Positions 2,367 through 12,486 of a stretch of 20,633 bases of DNA are shown here, one piece after another. Every line of letters starts with the position of its first letter. Positions within the stretch are counted from its first letter, which is position 1. The stretch comes from Myxococcota bacterium. Its GTDB lineage: Bacteria > Myxococcota > XYA12-FULL-58-9 > JABJBS01. The notes beneath the pieces were generated by a model that did not search any database, was not told where the DNA came from, and was given only the letters and a program-made list of their open reading frames with translations. Where the stretch lies: NCBI GenBank assembly GCA_036339465.1, contig JAYZAY010000023.1, positions 1 to 20,633 of the forward strand, read 5' to 3'. A program made the position numbers and the translations under genes.

Positions 2367-3578
2367 CTAATTCTTCTTTTGGCTTTTTCCGCCCATCTTC
2401 GCAACCTTGGTGACCACATCTCGGGCCATCTTACCTGCAACGGTCTTTATTTTGGTTCCTTTTCCCTGCCACTTAGTCCCTGCCTCCGAACTAGATTTCC
2501 CGGCAGTTTTCACGGCTTTCTGGGTCGCTTTCGCGGCCACCTTCTTCGTAGCTGCCTTGGCCACCTTCTTCGTAGCTGTCTTGGCCGCTTTCGCGGTCAC
2601 CTTCTTCGCTGCTGTCTTGGTCGCTGTCTTGGCCACCTTCTTCGCTGCTGTCTTCGTCGCTGTCTTGGCCACCTTCTTCGCTGCTGTCTTGGTCACCTTC
2701 TTCGCTGCTGTCTTGGCCACCTTCTTCGCTGCTGTCTTGGTCGCTGTCTTAGCCACCTTCTTCGTAGCTGTCTTGGTCACCTTCTTCGTAGCTGTCTTGG
2801 CCACCTTCTTCGCTGCTGTCTTGGCCACCTTCTTCGTAGCTGTCTCGGTCACCTTCTTCGCTGCTGTCTTGGCCGCTTTCTTAGCACCCATCTCGGACTT
2901 CTTTTTGGCCGCTGCTTCAGCTTTTTGTTTGGCCAGAGCCTGCACCTGGCGTTTCGTTTCTAACGCTTCCTTTGCTTTGGATTTTTCGTCGGCTTTTCGT
3001 TTCGCCTCCGCAATTCTAGCTTCCTGCGCTTCTTCTTTGCGTTTCAATTCCGCAAGCTTCGCTGCTTCCCGAGCGGCGCGTTGCTCGGCATCTCTCTCAC
3101 TTTTGAGCTCAATCAAGAAATCCAGAACCTCTTGAACATGCTCCTCCACTCTATTCGGTCGCCAAATCGCTAAAACCTTCCCCTCTTCATCCACCAAGAC
3201 TGTGGTTCGACACCGTTGATCGGACATCCGTCCATACCAGGGCACATTACTCACCACACCATAAGCCTCCGCAACTTTCGAATCGGCATCCACCAGCATG
3301 GATAATCCCAATCCCAAGCTCTTTCTGAACTTCTCAAGCTCTTCTAATGGCTTATCCGAGATACCGAAAACCGATGTGCCCAATTTCTTGAAAGCACTTG
3401 CTTTATCTTGAAAGTCAAGAATCTCTCTCGTACAAGCCGGGGTTCCCTCTTCGATGTAGAAAACAAGAACAACAATCTTCCCAAGAAGATCCTCAAGTGA
3501 AACGGTGGTCCCACCACTTTCTGTGAGCCGAAATTGTGGTGCTTTAGAACCGAGTTTTAGGGTGGCTTGGGATCCCAT
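2367..3578 (-). CDS. bcp: BCP/PrxQ-type peroxiredoxin fused to a predicted coiled coil and histone H1-like Lys/Ala/Thr-rich tail
   Basis: APQFRL..GKIVVLVFY..TPACTRE..F, GISD, RTTVLVDEEGKV typical of BCP; then EQRAAREAAK helix and KTAAKKVA repeats. Start taken as ATG 3578 (ORF track starts at TTG 3629). Confidence 0.85.
   Translation of the reverse strand: MGSQATLKLGSKAPQFRLTESGGTTVSLEDLLGKIVVLVFYIEEGTPACTREILDFQDKASAFKKLGTSVFGISDKPLEELEKFRKSLGLGLSMLVDADSKVAEAYGVVSNVPWYGRMSDQRCRTTVLVDEEGKVLAIWRPNRVEEHVQEVLDFLIELKSERDAEQRAAREAAKLAELKRKEEAQEARIAEAKRKADEKSKAKEALETKRQVQALAKQKAEAAAKKKSEMGAKKAAKTAAKKVTETATKKVAKTAAKKVAKTATKKVTKTATKKVAKTATKTAAKKVAKTAAKKVTKTAAKKVAKTATKTAAKKVAKTATKTAAKKVTAKAAKTATKKVAKAATKKVAAKATQKAVKTAGKSSSEAGTKWQGKGTKIKTVAGKMARDVVTKVAKMGGKSQKKN
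2510..2880. repeat. Coding tandem repeat (24-bp unit with 12-bp inserts) encoding KTA(A/T)KKV(A/T)
   Basis: Repeated (g)gccaccttcttcg(c/t)(t/a)gctgtctt on the + strand, all in frame. Confidence 0.95.
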
Positions 3579-3658
3579 AGACCAGACGTTAACAGTGCTT
3601 TGATTCGGTTGCAAGTAACGGGAATTCAAAGTGTTATTTGGACCGAGACAAGGTGGCT

Positions 3659-4498: not shown

Positions 4499-6790
4499 CT
4501 AAGAAACCTTTGCCACCGATCGTTTCCCTTTGATTGATTTCGGTCTGTAGATCCCTCTTGGCTGGCTCCTTAAAAACCAATCTGGGGCAACCGGTCGAGA
4601 CAATAAGTATCCCTGTCCAAATTGACACCCCATTTCCCGCAAATGGTCTAGTTGAAACCAATGCTCGATTCCCTCCGCTACAACATTGAGTTTTAGGCTT
4701 TTGGCCACGGCCAGAATTGCTCTAATGATCTCACCAATTTCTTAATTTTGTCCCAAACGACTTACGAACGAACGATCGATCTTAAGTAAATCAATGGGAA
4801 AGGTGTGCAAGGCACTCAAAGAAGAGTAGCCCGTGCCAAAGTCATCCAAATGTAGGTGCACGCCCATATCGCGGAGGGCGGCAAGTCGTTTCTTCACGGG
4901 CCCCATATTTTGAAGAACCAAAGACTCTGTAATCTCCAAGCATAAACAGTCGCCATCGAGATTAAACGCCTCCAAAGCACCCACCACCTTCTGTACAAAA
5001 TCCTCGTGCATCAATTGTAGAGCCGAAACATTCACAGAAACACGCGGATAGTGAACACCGTCCCCACTTCTCTGCAAACGAGATAATTGAGCGCAGGATT
5101 CAAAGATAACCCACGTCCCTAAATGAGAAATCAAACCGGTTTCTTCCGCAATACTGATAAAGTTTTCGGGAGGAACAATTTGTCCCTTCCGATCCCTCCA
5201 GCGCACCAACACTTCTAGACTATGAATCTCAAAAGTCTCGATATCGTAAATTGGCTGCATGACGATATGTAACTTTTTCTCGTCAAGAGCACGTCTCAAT
5301 TCGTTTTCAAGCTCCAATCGATGAGCCACCTCAACCTTCATACGTTGGTCGAACAAACAATAACCCATGGTCGTGCTTTTTTTCGCTCGATAAAGGGCCA
5401 TGCTAGCCTCTCCGACGACCATCTCCGCACTTCTATGGTGGGGTGAAAATTGAACCAGCCCCATACTAATGGGAACATACACAACCTGTGACCCGATATG
5501 AATCGGCAACGAAAACAACTGCTTAATACGCGCAGATATCTCCATCAACCCCGCCGTATCCCTAACTCGAGGCAACAAGATGCCAAACTCATCCCCACTC
5601 AATCGACTAACCACGCCTTCCTCAAAAACAATATCCGAAAGTCGATCCGCCACCGAGCACAGAAATTCGTCCCCAACCACATGACCAAAGGTGTCATTGA
5701 CCAGTTTAAATCGATCAATATCCAATAGAATCACGCCACCGAGTCGTTGTCGACCCATGGAACGATGGCTTAATAATGTTGCGATAGAACCTAAAAAACA
5801 GGTTCGGTTGGGCAAGCCCGTAAGGGAATCGTGTTGGGCCTGAATTTTGAGTGACTGCTCGGAAACCTTTCGAACCGTGATATCAGAGATCGAACCCGCC
5901 ATTCGAACCGGGCGACCACCGGCAACCAAACAGGTCCCCCTCAATGATATCCAAGATTGAGTGCCGTCACTGAAAACAACCCTGCACTCATGTTCAAAGG
6001 AGTCACCATCGCCGGATACATGAAGTCCGATAGCATTGATAATATTCAACTGGTCCTCAGGGTGAACTTTTTGAAATGCGTCAAAAGGCTGCCCAAACTC
6101 GACTGCACTTTCCAATCCCAGCAACTCCGATGCCCGATCAGACAGGTAGAGCTTGTGGAGGTCAAATCGGTAATCCCAAATACCATCTCGCACACCGCGA
6201 ACCACCAGTTCATAGCGCGCCTGACTCTCCGCTAAAGCTTGTTCGTGTTGTCGCAAGTTGTCGCGCGCCATAGCCATCGATGCTAAATCTGCAAGAGAGG
6301 CGGCAAAAGTCGCATCGGAAGAAGTCCAAACCCTTGGACCCACTCCAACATGCTCATGACAAAGTACACCCACCACTTCACCATTCCTGCGAATGGGTGC
6401 ATCCAATACAGCTGTGATGCCCTCCGGAAGAAGATACGAGTCTTTAAACTCAGTCATAGATGAGTGGGTGCGCACATCATTGGCCACCACCGCCCGATTG
6501 GCATCCAAGGCCTCAAAATAGGTGGGGTAGCTCTGCCGGGTCAATACCGCACCTTCGACATAGGTCCCCAACTTTCGGCTGTAAAGGGTTTCGCAGGCGA
6601 TCACGCTTTGGGCATCATCATAAAGCCAAATACTTGCCCGTTCCGTCATGAGACAATCGGCCGCTACTTTAACCAAGGAGCGAAATGCGACGGCCATCGA
6701 AACCGTGGGCGCAGAGGTCTGCCGCGCTAAAAGAAGAAGCGCTTGCTGTTGTCGGCGATGTTGTTCCGATACAGGGATGGTCTCATCCAT
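4499..6790 (-). pseudogene. GAF-PAS-GGDEF-EAL c-di-GMP signalling protein interrupted by an in-frame TAA (4742-4744)
   Basis: GAF (SYLLPEGITAVLDAPI..GVLCHEH), PAS/PAC (DGIWDY..HPED..GSISDIT), HDSLTGLPNR/SGDEF, EVLVRW, DDFGTGYSS; same frame resumes after TAA with EIGEIIRAILAVAKSLKLNVVAEGIE..QGYLLSRP. May be expressed as a truncated protein (4742-6790). Confidence 0.8.
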
Positions 6791-7853: not shown

Positions 7854-8270
7854 AGCACCTAATTTATCCGTGGTGAGGTAATACCAAAGCGTTGAAATGG
7901 GCTGCATCACTGTGGGTCGCTTTTGACCGACGCGCCAATACAGCCAATAGAACCACAAAACTCTGTGTGTTAGAGTCAGCCAAAACGCCAAAACTCAATC
8001 CACTTGGAAAAAGTTCACGATGGCCTCATAGGTGCCAATTTTTGTAGGGCCTACATCACGCCACATATTATTTTAGGACTACGTTTCGAAATACCCTTAC
8101 GCCGATACTACCATCAAATTCCCACAAAACACCGCACCAATGGAGCCAAATCCACGAAGGCACAAGCAAGGGCCGGTAATTAGATAACAGAATTTGGTAT
8201 TAACATCTTGATGATGCTAAGAGAAGAAGTAAGCCGTCTAGCCCAAGCGATTCATAGAAAGGCAGCCACG

Positions 8271-8879
8271 ATGAAAAAATTGGAGAAAGGCTTTACCCTT
8301 ATCGAGCTTATGATTGTTGTCGCGATTATTGGTATTCTTGCCGCCATCGCCATTCCAAACTTTAATCGTTTTCAGGCTCGAGCCAAACAAGCGGAGGTGA
8401 GGACCAATCTCAAATCCATCTTCACAGCCAAGGTTTCTCAATTCTCTGAGTGGGGCAGTTATATGTGCATGGGTGATTGTTACTGTGGTTGGGCTGTGAC
8501 GGGTAAAACCCGCTACTCTTACGATTGTGACGACTCGGGTGCCTCCCCCACCGACAACAGCAATCCAGATCCATCTTACTTCAATTTCAATGGAACGAAT
8601 TCTGCCCCTACAGTACGAGATGTGCGAGGCGGAGCGACACCCTGTTCGCTTCCAGCAATCACGACAAGTACTCACTCATATTTCCAAATCGGAGCTTCGG
8701 CCAATATCGATAGTGACATATATTGCGATAAATGGGTCATTAACGGTGGTCATTCTGGGACGGCTCAAAACACTCGGGCCTACTTAGAAGGTACACCACA
8801 AAACTATGACAATGACGTCGACGGAGGCAAAAACTCCATAGAAAACTCCGTCCCAGAAGTCTTTGCTAGCACAGACTAG
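8271..8879 (+). CDS. pilA: Type IVa pilin (copy 1)
   Basis: [31 protein letters not shown] prepilin cleavage/methylation motif with E+5; start at ATG 8271 by alignment to copy 2; six Cys. Confidence 0.9.
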
Positions 8880-9153: not shown

Positions 9154-9756
9154 ATGGGAAAACTTGAAAAAGGATTTACACTTATCGAGCTAATGATCGT
9201 TGTCGCAATCATAGGGATTCTTGCCGCCATTGCGATTCCAAATTTTAGTCGTTTTCAGTCTCGAACCAAACAAGCGGAGGTAAAAACCAATCTCAAATCC
9301 ATCTTCACAGCCAAGAATTCTCAGTTTACTGAGCGAAGAAGCTACGTGTGCTTAAGTGATTGTTACTGTGGCTGGACTGTGGACGGTAAAACCCGCTATT
9401 CTTACGATTGTGACGACTCGGGTGCCACCTTCAGCGACGCCACAAACCCAGACACATCTTACTACTTGGGCACCACCGGCGGACCGAACTCTGATGCAAT
9501 AACACGAATAATACAAGGCGGAGGCCCATCCTGTGACGTTCCAACAATCACGCAAGGTACTTTCTTTTCCTTCCAAATCGGAGCTTCGGCCAATATCGAT
9601 AGTGACAGCTTTTGTGATGAGTGGGTCATTAACGGTGGTTTTAATACGGCGGCTGAAAACGCTCGGGTCTTGCAAGAGGGTACACCACAAAACTATAATA
9701 ATGATGTTGAGCTAGGCATGGGTGCTACACAAACCGCCGTCCCGGCTCTTTGGTAG
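9154..9756 (+). CDS. pilA: Type IVa pilin (copy 2)
   Basis: [39 protein letters not shown]-like site; paralog of 8271-8879. Confidence 0.9.
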
Positions 9757-9771
9757 CGATTAGTAATCGCT
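9755..9771. other. Perfect 8-bp inverted repeat overlapping the pilin-2 stop codon
   Basis: agcgatta-g-taatcgct; degenerate copy after pilin 1 (agcgcttcgtaatcgcc). Confidence 0.6.
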
Positions 9772-9797
9772 CTTAACCCTCAGACAACGCCTACCAA

Positions 9798-9889
9798 GGC
9801 AGAGCAGCGGCAGGCAGGGCAGGCAGAAAATAAGCAGCGTGATTATTGGCAGGGCAGGGAGGCAGAAAATAAGCAGCGTGGTTTTGGCG
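9798..9889 (-). repeat. Left-end repeat cluster of RAYT-like element
   Basis: Two copies of aggcagaaaataagcagcgtg (9821-9841, 9860-9880) among ggcag micro-repeats; their continuations match the reverse complement of the right-end unit. Confidence 0.85.
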
Positions 9890-10053
9890 CAAATTCCCGG
9901 TAAGATTCTGTGAATGACTGTGATTTATGGGAACAAGAAGCGGCGAGAATTGCCGTTTTTGACACTAAGAAAGCCAAGTTGACGCAGTGGTGGGTTTCCG
10001 TCACTAAATTCGGGTGATAATTTCGGGTTGTGGATACTTTCTAGATATAAACG

Positions 10054-11022
10054 CTAGCTATAGCAGGTTGGGCGCCACGCACCTGGTGGGAACTCTGGTT
10101 CGGTAAATCCTTCCTTAAATGCCTCAGCGGCAACTCGGTAAAGAGTTTGAAACTCCCAATACCGCCTTGTATATTCTTGGGTCACCCAGTGTCTTAAATC
10201 AGCCCAAGCGGTGATAACACGTTTTCTGTCCTTCCAAAAAGGCGGTGAGGGCGGTGTTTTTCCCTTGAAGATGCTTTGGGCTTTCACTCTTTTGACACCA
10301 AGGATTCTCTTTCCTTCCTGCTGCCTTCGGGTCTTTTCCTTATGGGTGATTTTCTCTACGCGGCTTTGCACAAAACTTTGGCGCTCAGTTTCTGGGGTAT
10401 CCTTCCAAGCGGGCAACACGTCTAAATTGAGTTCGCGTTTTTGGTAGAAATCCTTTCGCTTGATAGGCGGCGGGTTTTTGAGGTTTGATGCCTTGTTTTT
10501 CGCGATAGCGTATGCCGTGCCGTCAAACCAAACCCCTTTTCTCTTTTCGCCGTACATGAGTTGCTTTGCACCTTGGGCCCCAGGCCAATCTTGGGGTCTT
10601 TCAACCAGGTCTTCTTTGCTCCCTTGGGACAATAGATAGTCCAGACATTCGATTGTACTGTTTTCGGTCGGTAGGGCGGTGCTGGTAAAGCGACTGTTCC
10701 AAAATGGGCCAGGTATTCCATTTTGGTTGCCGATACGGACTGAAATTTCCCGTTTGATAGAACCGACAAAAGGTGAAAACTGACAACCGGGGCCTTGCAT
10801 CATAAGGTGAAAATGATTTGAAAGAAATACGTCGTAATAGAGCTTAATTTCAGGGTATTTCATCTTTGATTGGGCGACAATTCCCGTGATAATCTCCCTC
10901 ACTCCATCTTTGGGCGCCATCAGATAAAGCCCACCCCAGGTTTTGCTCATCACATGGTAGACACAGCTTGGGTCAATGTAGCGGACATGGTGTTTGATTT
11001 GGGGTTCGTCGAATGTGTACAT
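10054..11022 (-). CDS. Y1 HUH transposase, REP-associated tyrosine transposase (RAYT)-like, ~322 aa
   Basis: YHVMSK, FLSNHFHLMM (HUH), FWNSRF, DYLLSQGSKEDLVERPQDWPG (catalytic Tyr region). Start reassigned to ATG 11022; the first 61 codons of the track ORF are read-through of the repeat array. Confidence 0.85.
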   Translation of the reverse strand: MYTFDEPQIKHHVRYIDPSCVYHVMSKTWGGLYLMAPKDGVREIITGIVAQSKMKYPEIKLYYDVFLSNHFHLMMQGPGCQFSPFVGSIKREISVRIGNQNGIPGPFWNSRFTSTALPTENSTIECLDYLLSQGSKEDLVERPQDWPGAQGAKQLMYGEKRKGVWFDGTAYAIAKNKASNLKNPPPIKRKDFYQKRELNLDVLPAWKDTPETERQSFVQSRVEKITHKEKTRRQQEGKRILGVKRVKAQSIFKGKTPPSPPFWKDRKRVITAWADLRHWVTQEYTRRYWEFQTLYRVAAEAFKEGFTEPEFPPGAWRPTCYS

Positions 11023-11033
11023 GCTTAACCCAT

Positions 11034-11050
11034 CGCAAAAACCATGCCAA
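11034..11050 (-). promoter_or_regulatory. Sigma54 (-24/-12) promoter candidate for the transposase
   Basis: Minus strand TTGGCATGGTTTTTGCG = GG-N10-GC, close to YTGGCACGNNNNTTGCW; predicted +1 about 11023, next to ATG 11022. Confidence 0.6.
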
Positions 11051-11556
11051 TAACCGGTTGATGCTCTATGCCAATAACCACGCTGCGTGTTGAGTGCCTT
11101 GAGTGCCCCGTGTTGAGTGCCCCGTGTTGAGTGCCCTGCGTGTTGAGTGCCCTGCGTGTTGAGTGCCTTGAGTGCCTTGAGTGCCTCAATAACCACGCTG
11201 CTCATTTATTCCCTGTTGAGTGCCAAAAACCATGCCAATAACCAGCCAATAACCACGCTGCTCATTTATTCCCATTTATTCCCTTATTCCCTGCTCATTT
11301 ATTCCCTCATTTATTCCCCCTGTCGAGTGCCAAAAACCATGCCAATAACCACGCTGCTCATTTATTCCCATTTATTCCCCTTCCAATAACCACGCTGCTC
11401 ATTTATTCCTCAAAAACCATGCCAATAACCACGCTGCTCATTTATTCCTCATTTATTCCTCATTTATTCCTATTCCCAATAACCACGCTGCTCATTTATT
11501 CCTTTCCCATTTATTCCCCCATTTATTCCCATTTATTCCCTTATTCCCATTTATTC
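11036..11556 (+). repeat. Right-end scrambled repeat array built from fragments of a ~49-nt unit
   Basis: Unit tgt(t/c)gagtgccaaaaaccatgccaataaccacgctgctcatttattccc (intact at 11321-11369); by hand count 9x ttgagtgcc, 7x caataaccacgctg, about 16x atttattc. Confidence 0.95.
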
Positions 11557-11709
11557 GCCCCCCCCCATGAGTGAAAAAATCCGCAGGAGCAGTCTTGTTT
11601 GTCAATGGGGCTCGGACAAGGACATGCGGTGGAATCAAAGCATGCTTTGGCATGGTTTTGACCGAAGTGCCGTAAAACGATAGAACGTGTTTCATTGAGA
11701 AGGGGGGGG

Positions 11710-12486
11710 ATGAGCATGGGTGAGGACATCCTGTCGAAGTGGGTTTTGGTTGTGGGGGGAACCGGCGGTATTGGAGTCGCTATTGTTCGCAGTTTAGCTC
11801 AAGCCGGTCGGTCGGTACTTGTGGGGTACCATTCGTCTGAAGCGAAAGCCCAGGCCATTGTGGACGGTCTTTCGGCTCAAGGTCACCGTGTGAAGGCGGC
11901 ACAAATTCAGTTAAACGGCGAACGGTCGGCAAGTGACTATTTCGAATCTATCGTGGCCGAGCATGGCGCGGTGGGCAGTGTTGTTTCTGCCGCAGGAGCG
12001 GAAATCCACCAACCCTATATCATCGATGCTAAATTGAGTGCTCTTAGGAATGCGTTGGACATTGAACTCACAGGTTTTCTTGATTTGGCACAAGGGGCCA
12101 TTGGCCACTTTCGTTCGGAGAGCGGTGGCAATTTTGTGACGGTGACCAGTTCGGGCACCTATCGGTATCCGCCGGGAGATGTTTTGTCGGTGGTACCGAA
12201 GGCGGGACTCGAAGCCTTGGTTAGAGGTATCGCCAGAGAAGAGGGAAAGTTTAATATTCGAGCCAACGCGGTAGCTGTGGGTGTTGTTGAGGCGGGCATG
12301 TTTCTCAAATTGAAGCAATCCGGTCAGCTCGACAAAGCTTGGATTGAGGCGGCCCAAAGAAATATTGCTTTGAGGCGATTTGGTGAGGCAAATGAGGTGG
12401 CTAAAGTGGTGGCATTTTTGACATCCGAAGATGCTTCTTATGTAAGTGGTCAAACGATTCGAGTGGATGGTGGATATTCTGTCTAA
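11710..12486 (+). CDS. Short-chain dehydrogenase/reductase (atypical active site)
   Basis: VGGTGGIG Rossmann motif, NIRANAVA, SYVSGQTIRVDGG; SVVPK in place of YxxxK. Start ATG 11710 or 11716. Confidence 0.9.
   Translation: MSMGEDILSKWVLVVGGTGGIGVAIVRSLAQAGRSVLVGYHSSEAKAQAIVDGLSAQGHRVKAAQIQLNGERSASDYFESIVAEHGAVGSVVSAAGAEIHQPYIIDAKLSALRNALDIELTGFLDLAQGAIGHFRSESGGNFVTVTSSGTYRYPPGDVLSVVPKAGLEALVRGIAREEGKFNIRANAVAVGVVEAGMFLKLKQSGQLDKAWIEAAQRNIALRRFGEANEVAKVVAFLTSEDASYVSGQTIRVDGGYSV

Follow-up and report, generated by a model that had tools for sequence, protein, structure and literature searches.

The irregular array of repeats beside an HUH nuclease gene in this Myxococcota genome is one of the two inverted, non-palindromic ends of a multi-copy mobile element. 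It consists of nested copies of that end, which nearly all begin at one fixed boundary and stop at many different positions, and the same stutter recurs at the other end and throughout the element family. In the reading favored here, which is given a probability of roughly 0.55, the stutter would arise from a nick at a fixed base about 12 nt outside a conserved core, short copying by a polymerase, and resealing of the enzyme-linked 5′ end.

The Element and Its Genomic Setting

The window, i.e., the whole stretch of DNA that was analyzed, is the complete contig C23 (20,633 bp) of a 4.17 Mb genome that is assembled in 102 contigs and estimated to be 92.8% complete. The mobile element spans positions 9798–11557 (1.76 kb), carries a single gene only, and is flanked by a type IV pilin-like gene at 9154–9756 and a short-chain dehydrogenase gene at 11695–12486. 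The pilin-like gene is the second of an adjoining pair on the plus strand (8208–8879 and 9154–9756, N_methyl plus Pilin_PilA), and the element lies directly after it. Elsewhere in the window, a 59-nt tandem repeat of two copies (96% matches) occupies 1415–1532. The features of the element are listed below, where A and B denote two types of outer tail.

9798–9888, plus strand: left (gene-distal) end with two core-bearing copies, the plus strand reading inward to the gene
9879–11097, no strand: interior common to at least one further copy of the element (unitig of run X1; identity with C31:1–125)
10054–11022, minus strand: HUH/Y1 nuclease gene, 322 aa, with its start at MYTF
11023–11099, minus strand: innermost full right end with tail A, adjoining the start codon; order on the minus strand GGCACTCAACAC, core GCAGCGTGGTTATTGG, inner part ...GGCATGGTTTTTGCG
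11100–11186, minus strand: seven truncated type-A copies of 8–17 nt, all from the A terminus and without the core (11186–11178, 11177–11169, 11168–11152, 11151–11136, 11135–11123, 11121–11109 and 11107–11100)
11187–11557, minus strand: six core-bearing type-B units (tail GGAATAAATGA) and short B copies
11558–11566, no strand: nine consecutive C (G on the minus strand) that close the array on its outer side and border unique DNA

Runs of C (G on the opposite strand) also stand at the unit starts within the array, where their length varies between 2 and 5. A frame of 383 aa that opens at 11205 is a mere read-through of the repeats into the 322-aa gene. The right array and the left end form 15 inverted pairs (9817–9883 with 11069–11508), with arms of 15–33 nt that are 79–94% complementary. 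The original prediction had portrayed the array as a special locus upstream of its own gene, a portrayal that has to be given up, as the array is one end of a multi-copy element whose downstream end stutters too.

Structure and Grammar of the Two Ends

Same-orientation fragments of one end unit had been predicted at this place, and they are present in the sequence, making up almost the whole of 11023–11557; the array, whose start had been set at 11036, begins at 11023 and adjoins the start codon of the gene (11022). The expectation that this is not a repeat of fixed period is borne out by Tandem Repeats Finder, which returns 16 overlapping rows over 11090–11560 with periods of 8–54 and up to 20% indels; a repeat finder also gives a 39-nt family of seven copies. 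The eight copies of the ttgagtgcc type were found again, with TTGAGTGCC occurring exactly eight times in 11090–11185 (its further occurrences in the window are one at 11216 and one at 5957), and CATTTATTCC occurs 15 times, always within 11203–11539.

The notion of one 49-nt unit survives in part: a core with its inner bases is shared, but it is joined to two different 12-nt outer tails, so that a single unit does not describe the array. Read on the minus strand from the outside toward the gene, a unit consists of the 12-nt tail, the core GCAGCGTGGTTATTGG (the complement of CCAATAACCACGCTGC), the inner part ...GGCATGGTTTTTGCG and the start codon. Tail A (GGCACTCAACAC) is confined to the zone 11023–11186 and tail B (GGAATAAATGA) to the zone 11187–11557, except for two type-A fragments (11214–11224 and 11325–11331) that are joined into the B zone. 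There are seven cores on the right side, and most segments have none; the short copies without a core follow one another immediately outside each core-bearing unit and, with few exceptions, have the tail type of that unit. A type-B 22-mer has six exact copies, all in the array and none elsewhere in the genome, and the outermost type-B copy is mutated.

The junctions were mapped by dividing 544 nt of the minus strand, from 11566 to 11023, into the fewest possible segments of two natural reference units. This parse assigned 524 of the 544 nt to unit fragments and left over 20 nt, in agreement with the predicted lack of unique spacers, and a CRISPR-like array is ruled out by this coverage, the irregular spacing and the missing unique spacers. 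The predicted clustering of junctions takes the form of one fixed boundary: 30 of the 33 segments start at offset 0–2 of the reference unit, while their stops are spread over 20 offsets. The fixed segment starts read ...GGAATAA or ...GGCACTC; on the complementary strand these are ...TTATTCC and ...GAGTGCC, after which the junctions had been said to cluster. The clear exception is the segment 11225–11244, and the other two nonconforming segments belong to the mutated outermost copy. A rule for the base that precedes the cut was dropped; G precedes 35 of 57 non-G starts, but a shift of the start by 1–2 nt fits equally well.

The polarity of the nesting was measured as an explained-prefix ratio, which is 0.84 inward versus 0.45 outward for the array and 0.93 versus 0.86 for the control, a coding tandem repeat of 368 bp (2515–2882) within the minus-strand frame 2367–3629. 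The periods of this coding repeat are multiples of 12 (24, 36, 48, 60, 72 and 84). Two other measures, the entropy of boundary 5-mers without a reference unit (3.63 vs. 3.91 bits) and a tolerant prefix count (13/17 vs. 9/17), proved too blunt, because the G run at the starts shifts the k-mers, and were superseded by the explained-prefix ratio and the reference-unit parse.

At the left end, the predicted stutter of ggcag is present as GGCAG/GCAG partial copies within 9798–9888. Its two core-bearing copies (about 9822–9849 and 9861–9880) are inverted relative to those on the right, and each is preceded by such partial copies; Tandem Repeats Finder gives periods of 9 and 39. The left end is a mirror image of the right-end grammar on the opposite strand.

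Six folds of the units on both strands gave z values of 0.13–1.24 against shuffled sequences; as single strands the units are unfolded, and therefore they do not qualify as REP hairpins. Scanned for promoters and terminators, the array has none on the strand of the gene, and the two sigma-70-like sites in 9700–11750, against 2.9 expected, are both on the plus strand.

The Nuclease

The adjacent gene had been taken to encode an HUH enzyme, which is confirmed: its product is an HUH/Y1 nuclease of the TnpA_Y1 superfamily with a RAYT-like fold, though not a canonical RAYT. The metal site is N69-H70-F71-H72, with N69 and both histidines invariant among 19 aligned homologues, and the equally invariant Y129 lies in helix 120–131 of the structural model, 59 residues past H70, in alignment with the tyrosine of ISDra2 TnpA; the HUH-to-Tyr spacing given for Y1 enzymes is about 58–67 residues (PMC6006769). 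The tyrosine motif is Y129-LLS-QG, i.e., Y-x3-QG. A profile of the 19 homologues matches ISDra2 TnpA (E = 1.2e-4) and Escherichia coli TnpA_REP, 4er8 (E = 3.2e-3). The AlphaFold model of the 322-aa protein (pLDDT 86.9) matches 4er8_A with a Foldseek E of 1.2e-5 and a TM score (target) of 0.72, and with a VIA-align Z of 14.2 (rmsd 2.9 over 155 residues), followed by IS608 TnpA at Z 8.3; nuclease domains of parvovirus B19 NS1 match weakly (Z 6.0–6.2), which reflects the common fold only.

The N-terminal core of the protein, about 150 aa long, is RAYT-like, and the C-terminal part, of about 170 aa, is conserved as well. Pfam at E 0.01 placed no family, HTH included, on the 322 residues, and searches with the whole-protein model gave no separate structural match for the C-terminal 170 aa. 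The NCBIfam model for REP-associated tyrosine transposases (NF047646) scores 45.1 bits, under its cut-off of 80.

Copies in the Same Genome

A protein search of the genome returned one intact gene and ten fragments, the latter on C22, C24, C56, C80 and C84. Judged by sequence identity, at least two copies of the element carry the same gene, because C31:1–125 is 100% identical to 9879–10003 and then continues into an end with a different outer tail, a 1219-nt unitig of run X1 covers exactly 9879–11097, and the ENA protein P0030 differs from the window protein at 0 of 322 residues in its body. The near-identical copies on C23 and C31 thus bear different outer tails on the same end. The read-through N-terminus of P0030 has 38 residues in common with the translated array and end on C80 and diverges further out; by the same comparison, the gene is constant between assemblies and the outer array is not, which points to turnover.

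The same grammar recurs, with different tails on a similar core, in arrays on C22 (two), C26, C31, C37, C56, C58, C63, C80, C84 and C88, many of them at contig ends, and every array in this genome that carries the core GCAGCG has its fixed start 11–13 nt before it. The 16-nt core has 28 sites in the genome at up to two mismatches, mostly clustered in arrays by gene copies or contig ends, and a 14-mer has 82 matches versus 56 in the reversed genome. On C22 (28300–30679), two stuttered upstream arrays are each followed by an N-terminal gene fragment (residues 5–94 and 5–37), and a partial copy there extends to and includes the start codon.

Among the 321 merged Tandem Repeats Finder regions of the genome, 11 are irregular, with three or more periods and indels of 12% or more; ends of the element family make up 8 of these 11. 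Of the remaining three, two are coding repeats and one is a regular array of two units on C34. In this last array (C34:8531–8999), regular units of about 25 nt alternate between two kinds (CGTCGGATG...GGTGG...); it bears no relation to the element family and is perhaps iteron-like.

Homologues in Other Genomes

A large protein collection yielded 22 homologues, of which 20 are on contigs of 3.8 kb or less, as would be expected of short-read assemblies with repeats on both sides of the gene. A genome search gave matches in 22 of 41 genomes, i.e., in the source genome and in 21 of 40 relatives; a search built on seven closer sequences added 78 further loci in metagenome-assembled genomes labelled Myxococcota/Myxococcales, Bdellovibrionales, Acidobacteriota/Thermoanaerobaculia and others, and a metagenome scan added two. 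The flanks of these homologues follow the same grammar with unrelated end sequences, for example with the cores GATCGACCAGGAAC, TTAAGCAGGAA and GGTGCCA.

For the survey of flanks, 162 flanks of 84 non-duplicate homologous loci were used; three loci had been left out as duplicates by their identical gene, one of which (L073) is actually a second copy on another contig. A strict array filter (a 6-mer that occurs four or more times, 38 nt or more explained, and a ratio no lower than 0.55) was passed by 25 flanks in 22 loci, with 14 arrays upstream and 11 downstream of the gene, including arrays on contigs of 0.3–0.7 Mb (L067, L068 and L069). The nested-prefix ratio is stronger inward in 20 and outward in 5 (two-sided binomial p = 0.004, which is overstated since the loci are related), and three of the five outward-scoring arrays (L025 upstream, L037 downstream and L100 downstream) still have a fixed start when viewed by eye.

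In a homologue of 69% identity on a metagenome contig (L122), the sequence restarts at gene nucleotide 893 after the downstream terminus, and L122:1381–1431 repeats 51 nt of the gene interior (L122:893–943). The repeat is read as a probable long partial duplication, or alternatively as an assembly loop.

Public Runs and Reliability of the Assembly

Part of the stretch occurs in 20 public runs of 10 studies, all of them marine or seawater and represented by contigs only. Among these, none bridges the array and none has an empty site; in four public runs, no contig spans the array and the contigs break there. Unitigs of X1 reproduce 11069–11151 and 11139–11240 exactly, and a unitig of X4, a run of another study, is identical to the 110-nt array piece 11339–11448. 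The existence of the nested junctions is safe, but the copy number is not, and the exact length of the array rests on short-read assembly. An array made up by assembly, in which short reads from a single unit or very few were wrongly strung together, is very improbable despite the 102-contig assembly, the breaks in four runs and the many homologues on tiny contigs, given that pieces of it are reproduced exactly in runs of separate studies, that the same grammar appears in many independent assemblies, including contigs of 0.3–0.7 Mb, and that proteins are called through such arrays.

The public runs also contain variant joints, from 11097 to 11168 and from 11097 to 11408 (with 29 nt on one side), as well as small indels in the B zone, all of which may derive from paralogues or other strains, or else reflect a second placement inside the array. 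The locus had been predicted to be actively generated and variable; the identity of the 110-nt piece in another study shows that it is not hypervariable, and the signs of ongoing change are hints at most.

Origin of the Arrays

The family and fold of the enzyme, the inverted ends, the fixed 5′ start and variable 3′ stop at both ends, and their recurrence across the family are established. Y1 HUH enzymes cut a single strand, hold its 5′ end via the tyrosine and leave a free 3′-OH (PMC3333891). In both ends of the element, the fixed boundary is a 5′ end on the inward-reading strand, which is the polarity of an HUH 5′-phosphotyrosine, and the same stutter flanks homologues with unrelated end sequences in other genomes. 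The fixed cut site and the involvement of the enzyme, both predicted originally, are thus plausible and comparatively well supported by the sequence pattern; the rolling-circle mode that was suggested with them is putative.

In the favored reading, the enzyme would bind the core and nick the inward-reading strand at a fixed base 11–13 nt outside it, thereby becoming linked to the new 5′ end, which comprises the tail plus the core, and leaving a 3′-OH on the flank. A polymerase would extend this 3′-OH and recopy a few to tens of bases, occasionally hundreds, and the displaced 5′ strand, capped by the protein, would be protected from trimming. The enzyme would then join the 5′ end that it holds to the new 3′ end or, in trans, to a 3′ end of the same kind made elsewhere, and one daughter would gain, after replication, a copy that starts at the cut site and stops where synthesis stopped. 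Repetition at each unit that retains a core would build the nested array; runs of short copies would lie outside core-bearing units because only units with a core can be cut again. Two observations fit less readily: the type-B units outside type-A units, with type-A fragments outside a type-B unit, are not explained by a simple model in cis, and the different tails of the near-identical copies on C23 and C31 are not predicted by it. The mixed A/B joins suggest resealing onto 3′ ends from another end, in trans, or a former neighboring element.

Ordinary replication slippage, or template switching mediated by microhomology, in a stretch rich in repeats and in A+T, with no part for the enzyme, is unlikely as a full account, even though it draws on several features of the junctions. 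Most of them are ambiguous by 1–3 nt, mostly in G or A runs, one of them (11244/11245) is a plain 11-nt tandem duplication whose start is not at the terminus, and the innermost left unit has a microhomology deletion relative to the C31 copy. However, slippage gives no reason to restart at one base that is the edge of the inverted-repeat homology, nor for the mirrored polarity at both ends or at ends of unrelated sequence elsewhere (20 vs. 5), nor for the concentration of irregular arrays (8 of 11) at ends of the element family. A switch of the polymerase guided by microhomology at an enzyme-made nick is possible, and it is inseparable from resealing by the enzyme because of the 1–3-nt ambiguity of the junctions.

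The two tail types in one array and the multi-copy nature of the element raise the alternative that related elements, whole or aborted, inserted repeatedly by existing ends and were then reduced by deletions to a graveyard of ends. In line with this, a degenerate type-B-like end of opposite orientation lies at 11630–11662 on the plus strand, about 70–90 nt outside the array, and may be what is left of a second element that pointed away from the gene; its 13-mer TTGGCATGGTTTT (11647, plus strand) is specific to the family, as all seven of its genome matches are ends of the element family and the reversed-genome control gave 0. The coreless copies of 8–17 nt, however, cannot be insertions of an element, and their tail matches the unit just inside, which leaves self-targeting a distinctly improbable origin of the stutter.

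It is similarly doubtful that selection keeps the array as a set of binding sites that titrate or position the enzyme, or that drive or regulate the downstream gene. Its position against the start codon and its seven cores would suit such a role, but most segments lack the core, arrays are also gene-distal (11 of 25 in other genomes), the strand of the gene has no sigma-70-like site in the array, and the patterns of copies vary between related copies.

Beyond the favored reading of nick, short copying and resealing, the arrays could be in vivo footprints of an undescribed Y1 HUH transposition pathway with copy-out from both ends, a proposal that is made tentatively and is more doubtful than plausible. 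Each inverted end would be nicked on its own inward strand, and the 3′-OH of the flank would prime synthesis with strand displacement that enters the element from both sides. The two strands set free in this way, each capped by the protein, would be complementary and could pair into a free double-stranded copy. Under such a pathway, the short nested copies would be aborted initiations that were resealed, and the long ones (C22, and about 490 nt in L122) would be later aborts.

Relation to Known Systems

The element appears to be, as its closest known kind, a small TIRtron-type mobile element, in which one HUH/tyrosine nuclease gene lies between inverted non-palindromic ends. RAYT-like genes with inverted non-REP flanks were named TIRtrons, and their enzymes TIRYT, by Di Nocera, De Gregorio and Rocco in 2013 (PMC3733652). 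As in the element described here, a RAYT-like HUH/Y1 gene is placed between inverted repeats of a kind other than REP hairpins; these TIRs can occur as small families, dimers or clusters, and the text contains no enzyme biochemistry (PMC3733652). Nested co-terminal partial copies such as those found here are not described in that text, figures and supplements aside, and the GGGGWSAS common to many TIRs (PMC3733652) is missing at the present ends. Quentin et al. (2018) assigned TIRYT to subclass 2.1 of class 2, with the tyrosine motif Y---NP, and noted TnpA_Y1 subclasses without REPs and with C-terminal domains (PMC6006769); the class 2 motif differs from the Y129-LLS-QG of the present protein. 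Subclass 2.1 is also characterized by a C-terminal extension of HTH-like type.

The best structural match belongs to the REPtron of E. coli (TnpA_REP, 4er8), the gene of which is likewise flanked by inverted copies of its own site (PMC3333891). Its flanks, however, are palindromic REP hairpins with a 5′ GT[AG]G, whereas the present units do not fold; a GTGG is found within the core, with no stem after it. REPtron repeats are dispersed and of high copy number, whereas the units here are not dispersed and are mostly clustered in arrays. Also unlike a REPtron, the gene is multi-copy with decayed paralogues, and its NF047646 score is below the cut-off. The idea of an enzyme that reshapes its own flanks is not new, because Ton-Hoang et al. 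(2012) reported in vitro cleavage and rejoining of its repeats by TnpA_REP, with recombination products that contain a further REP, and proposed local amplification (PMC3333891).

Transposases of the IS200/IS605 family (IS608 and ISDra2 TnpA) have the same catalytic core as the present enzyme, and cleave at a fixed distance from a recognized site with a 5′-phosphotyrosine link (PMC3333891). IS200/IS605 elements carry subterminal hairpins and lack inverted ends, are cut twice on the same strand and encode a transposase of about 150 aa, whereas the present element has inverted ends, no hairpins and a 322-aa protein. Each of its ends would resemble a "left end" on its own strand, an arrangement that single-strand peel-and-paste does not seem to accommodate. 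HUH initiators of rolling-circle and hairpin replication (plasmid Rep, parvovirus NS1/Rep) share the logic proposed here, namely a nick, extension of the 3′-OH with displacement, and resealing; in contrast to them, the element lacks a replicon, an origin hairpin and a helicase domain, and its short abortive copies would be fixed in the chromosome.

Implications

To our knowledge, nobody has shown how or whether TIR-flanked RAYT-like genes move, common as they are. Subclass 2.1 alone is present in 14.9% of strains (Quentin et al., 2018; PMC6006769). A polarized co-terminal stutter as a feature of a whole family was not found in the RAYT, TIRYT and HUH literature searched, in text taken without figures and supplements; within those texts, the stutter is an undescribed and recurrent property of this element family. 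It accounts for the occurrence of such genes on tiny contigs in short-read metagenome assemblies, and it provides a sequence-only marker for recent activity of the enzyme. From a polarized scar at both ends that is shared by the family, one can predict in concrete and testable form where the enzyme would cut (to within about 2 nt), on which strand, and that short DNA synthesis would take part. If the copy-out pathway were true, the arrays would give the cut site, strand and polarity of an uncharacterized class of enzymes directly from genome sequence.
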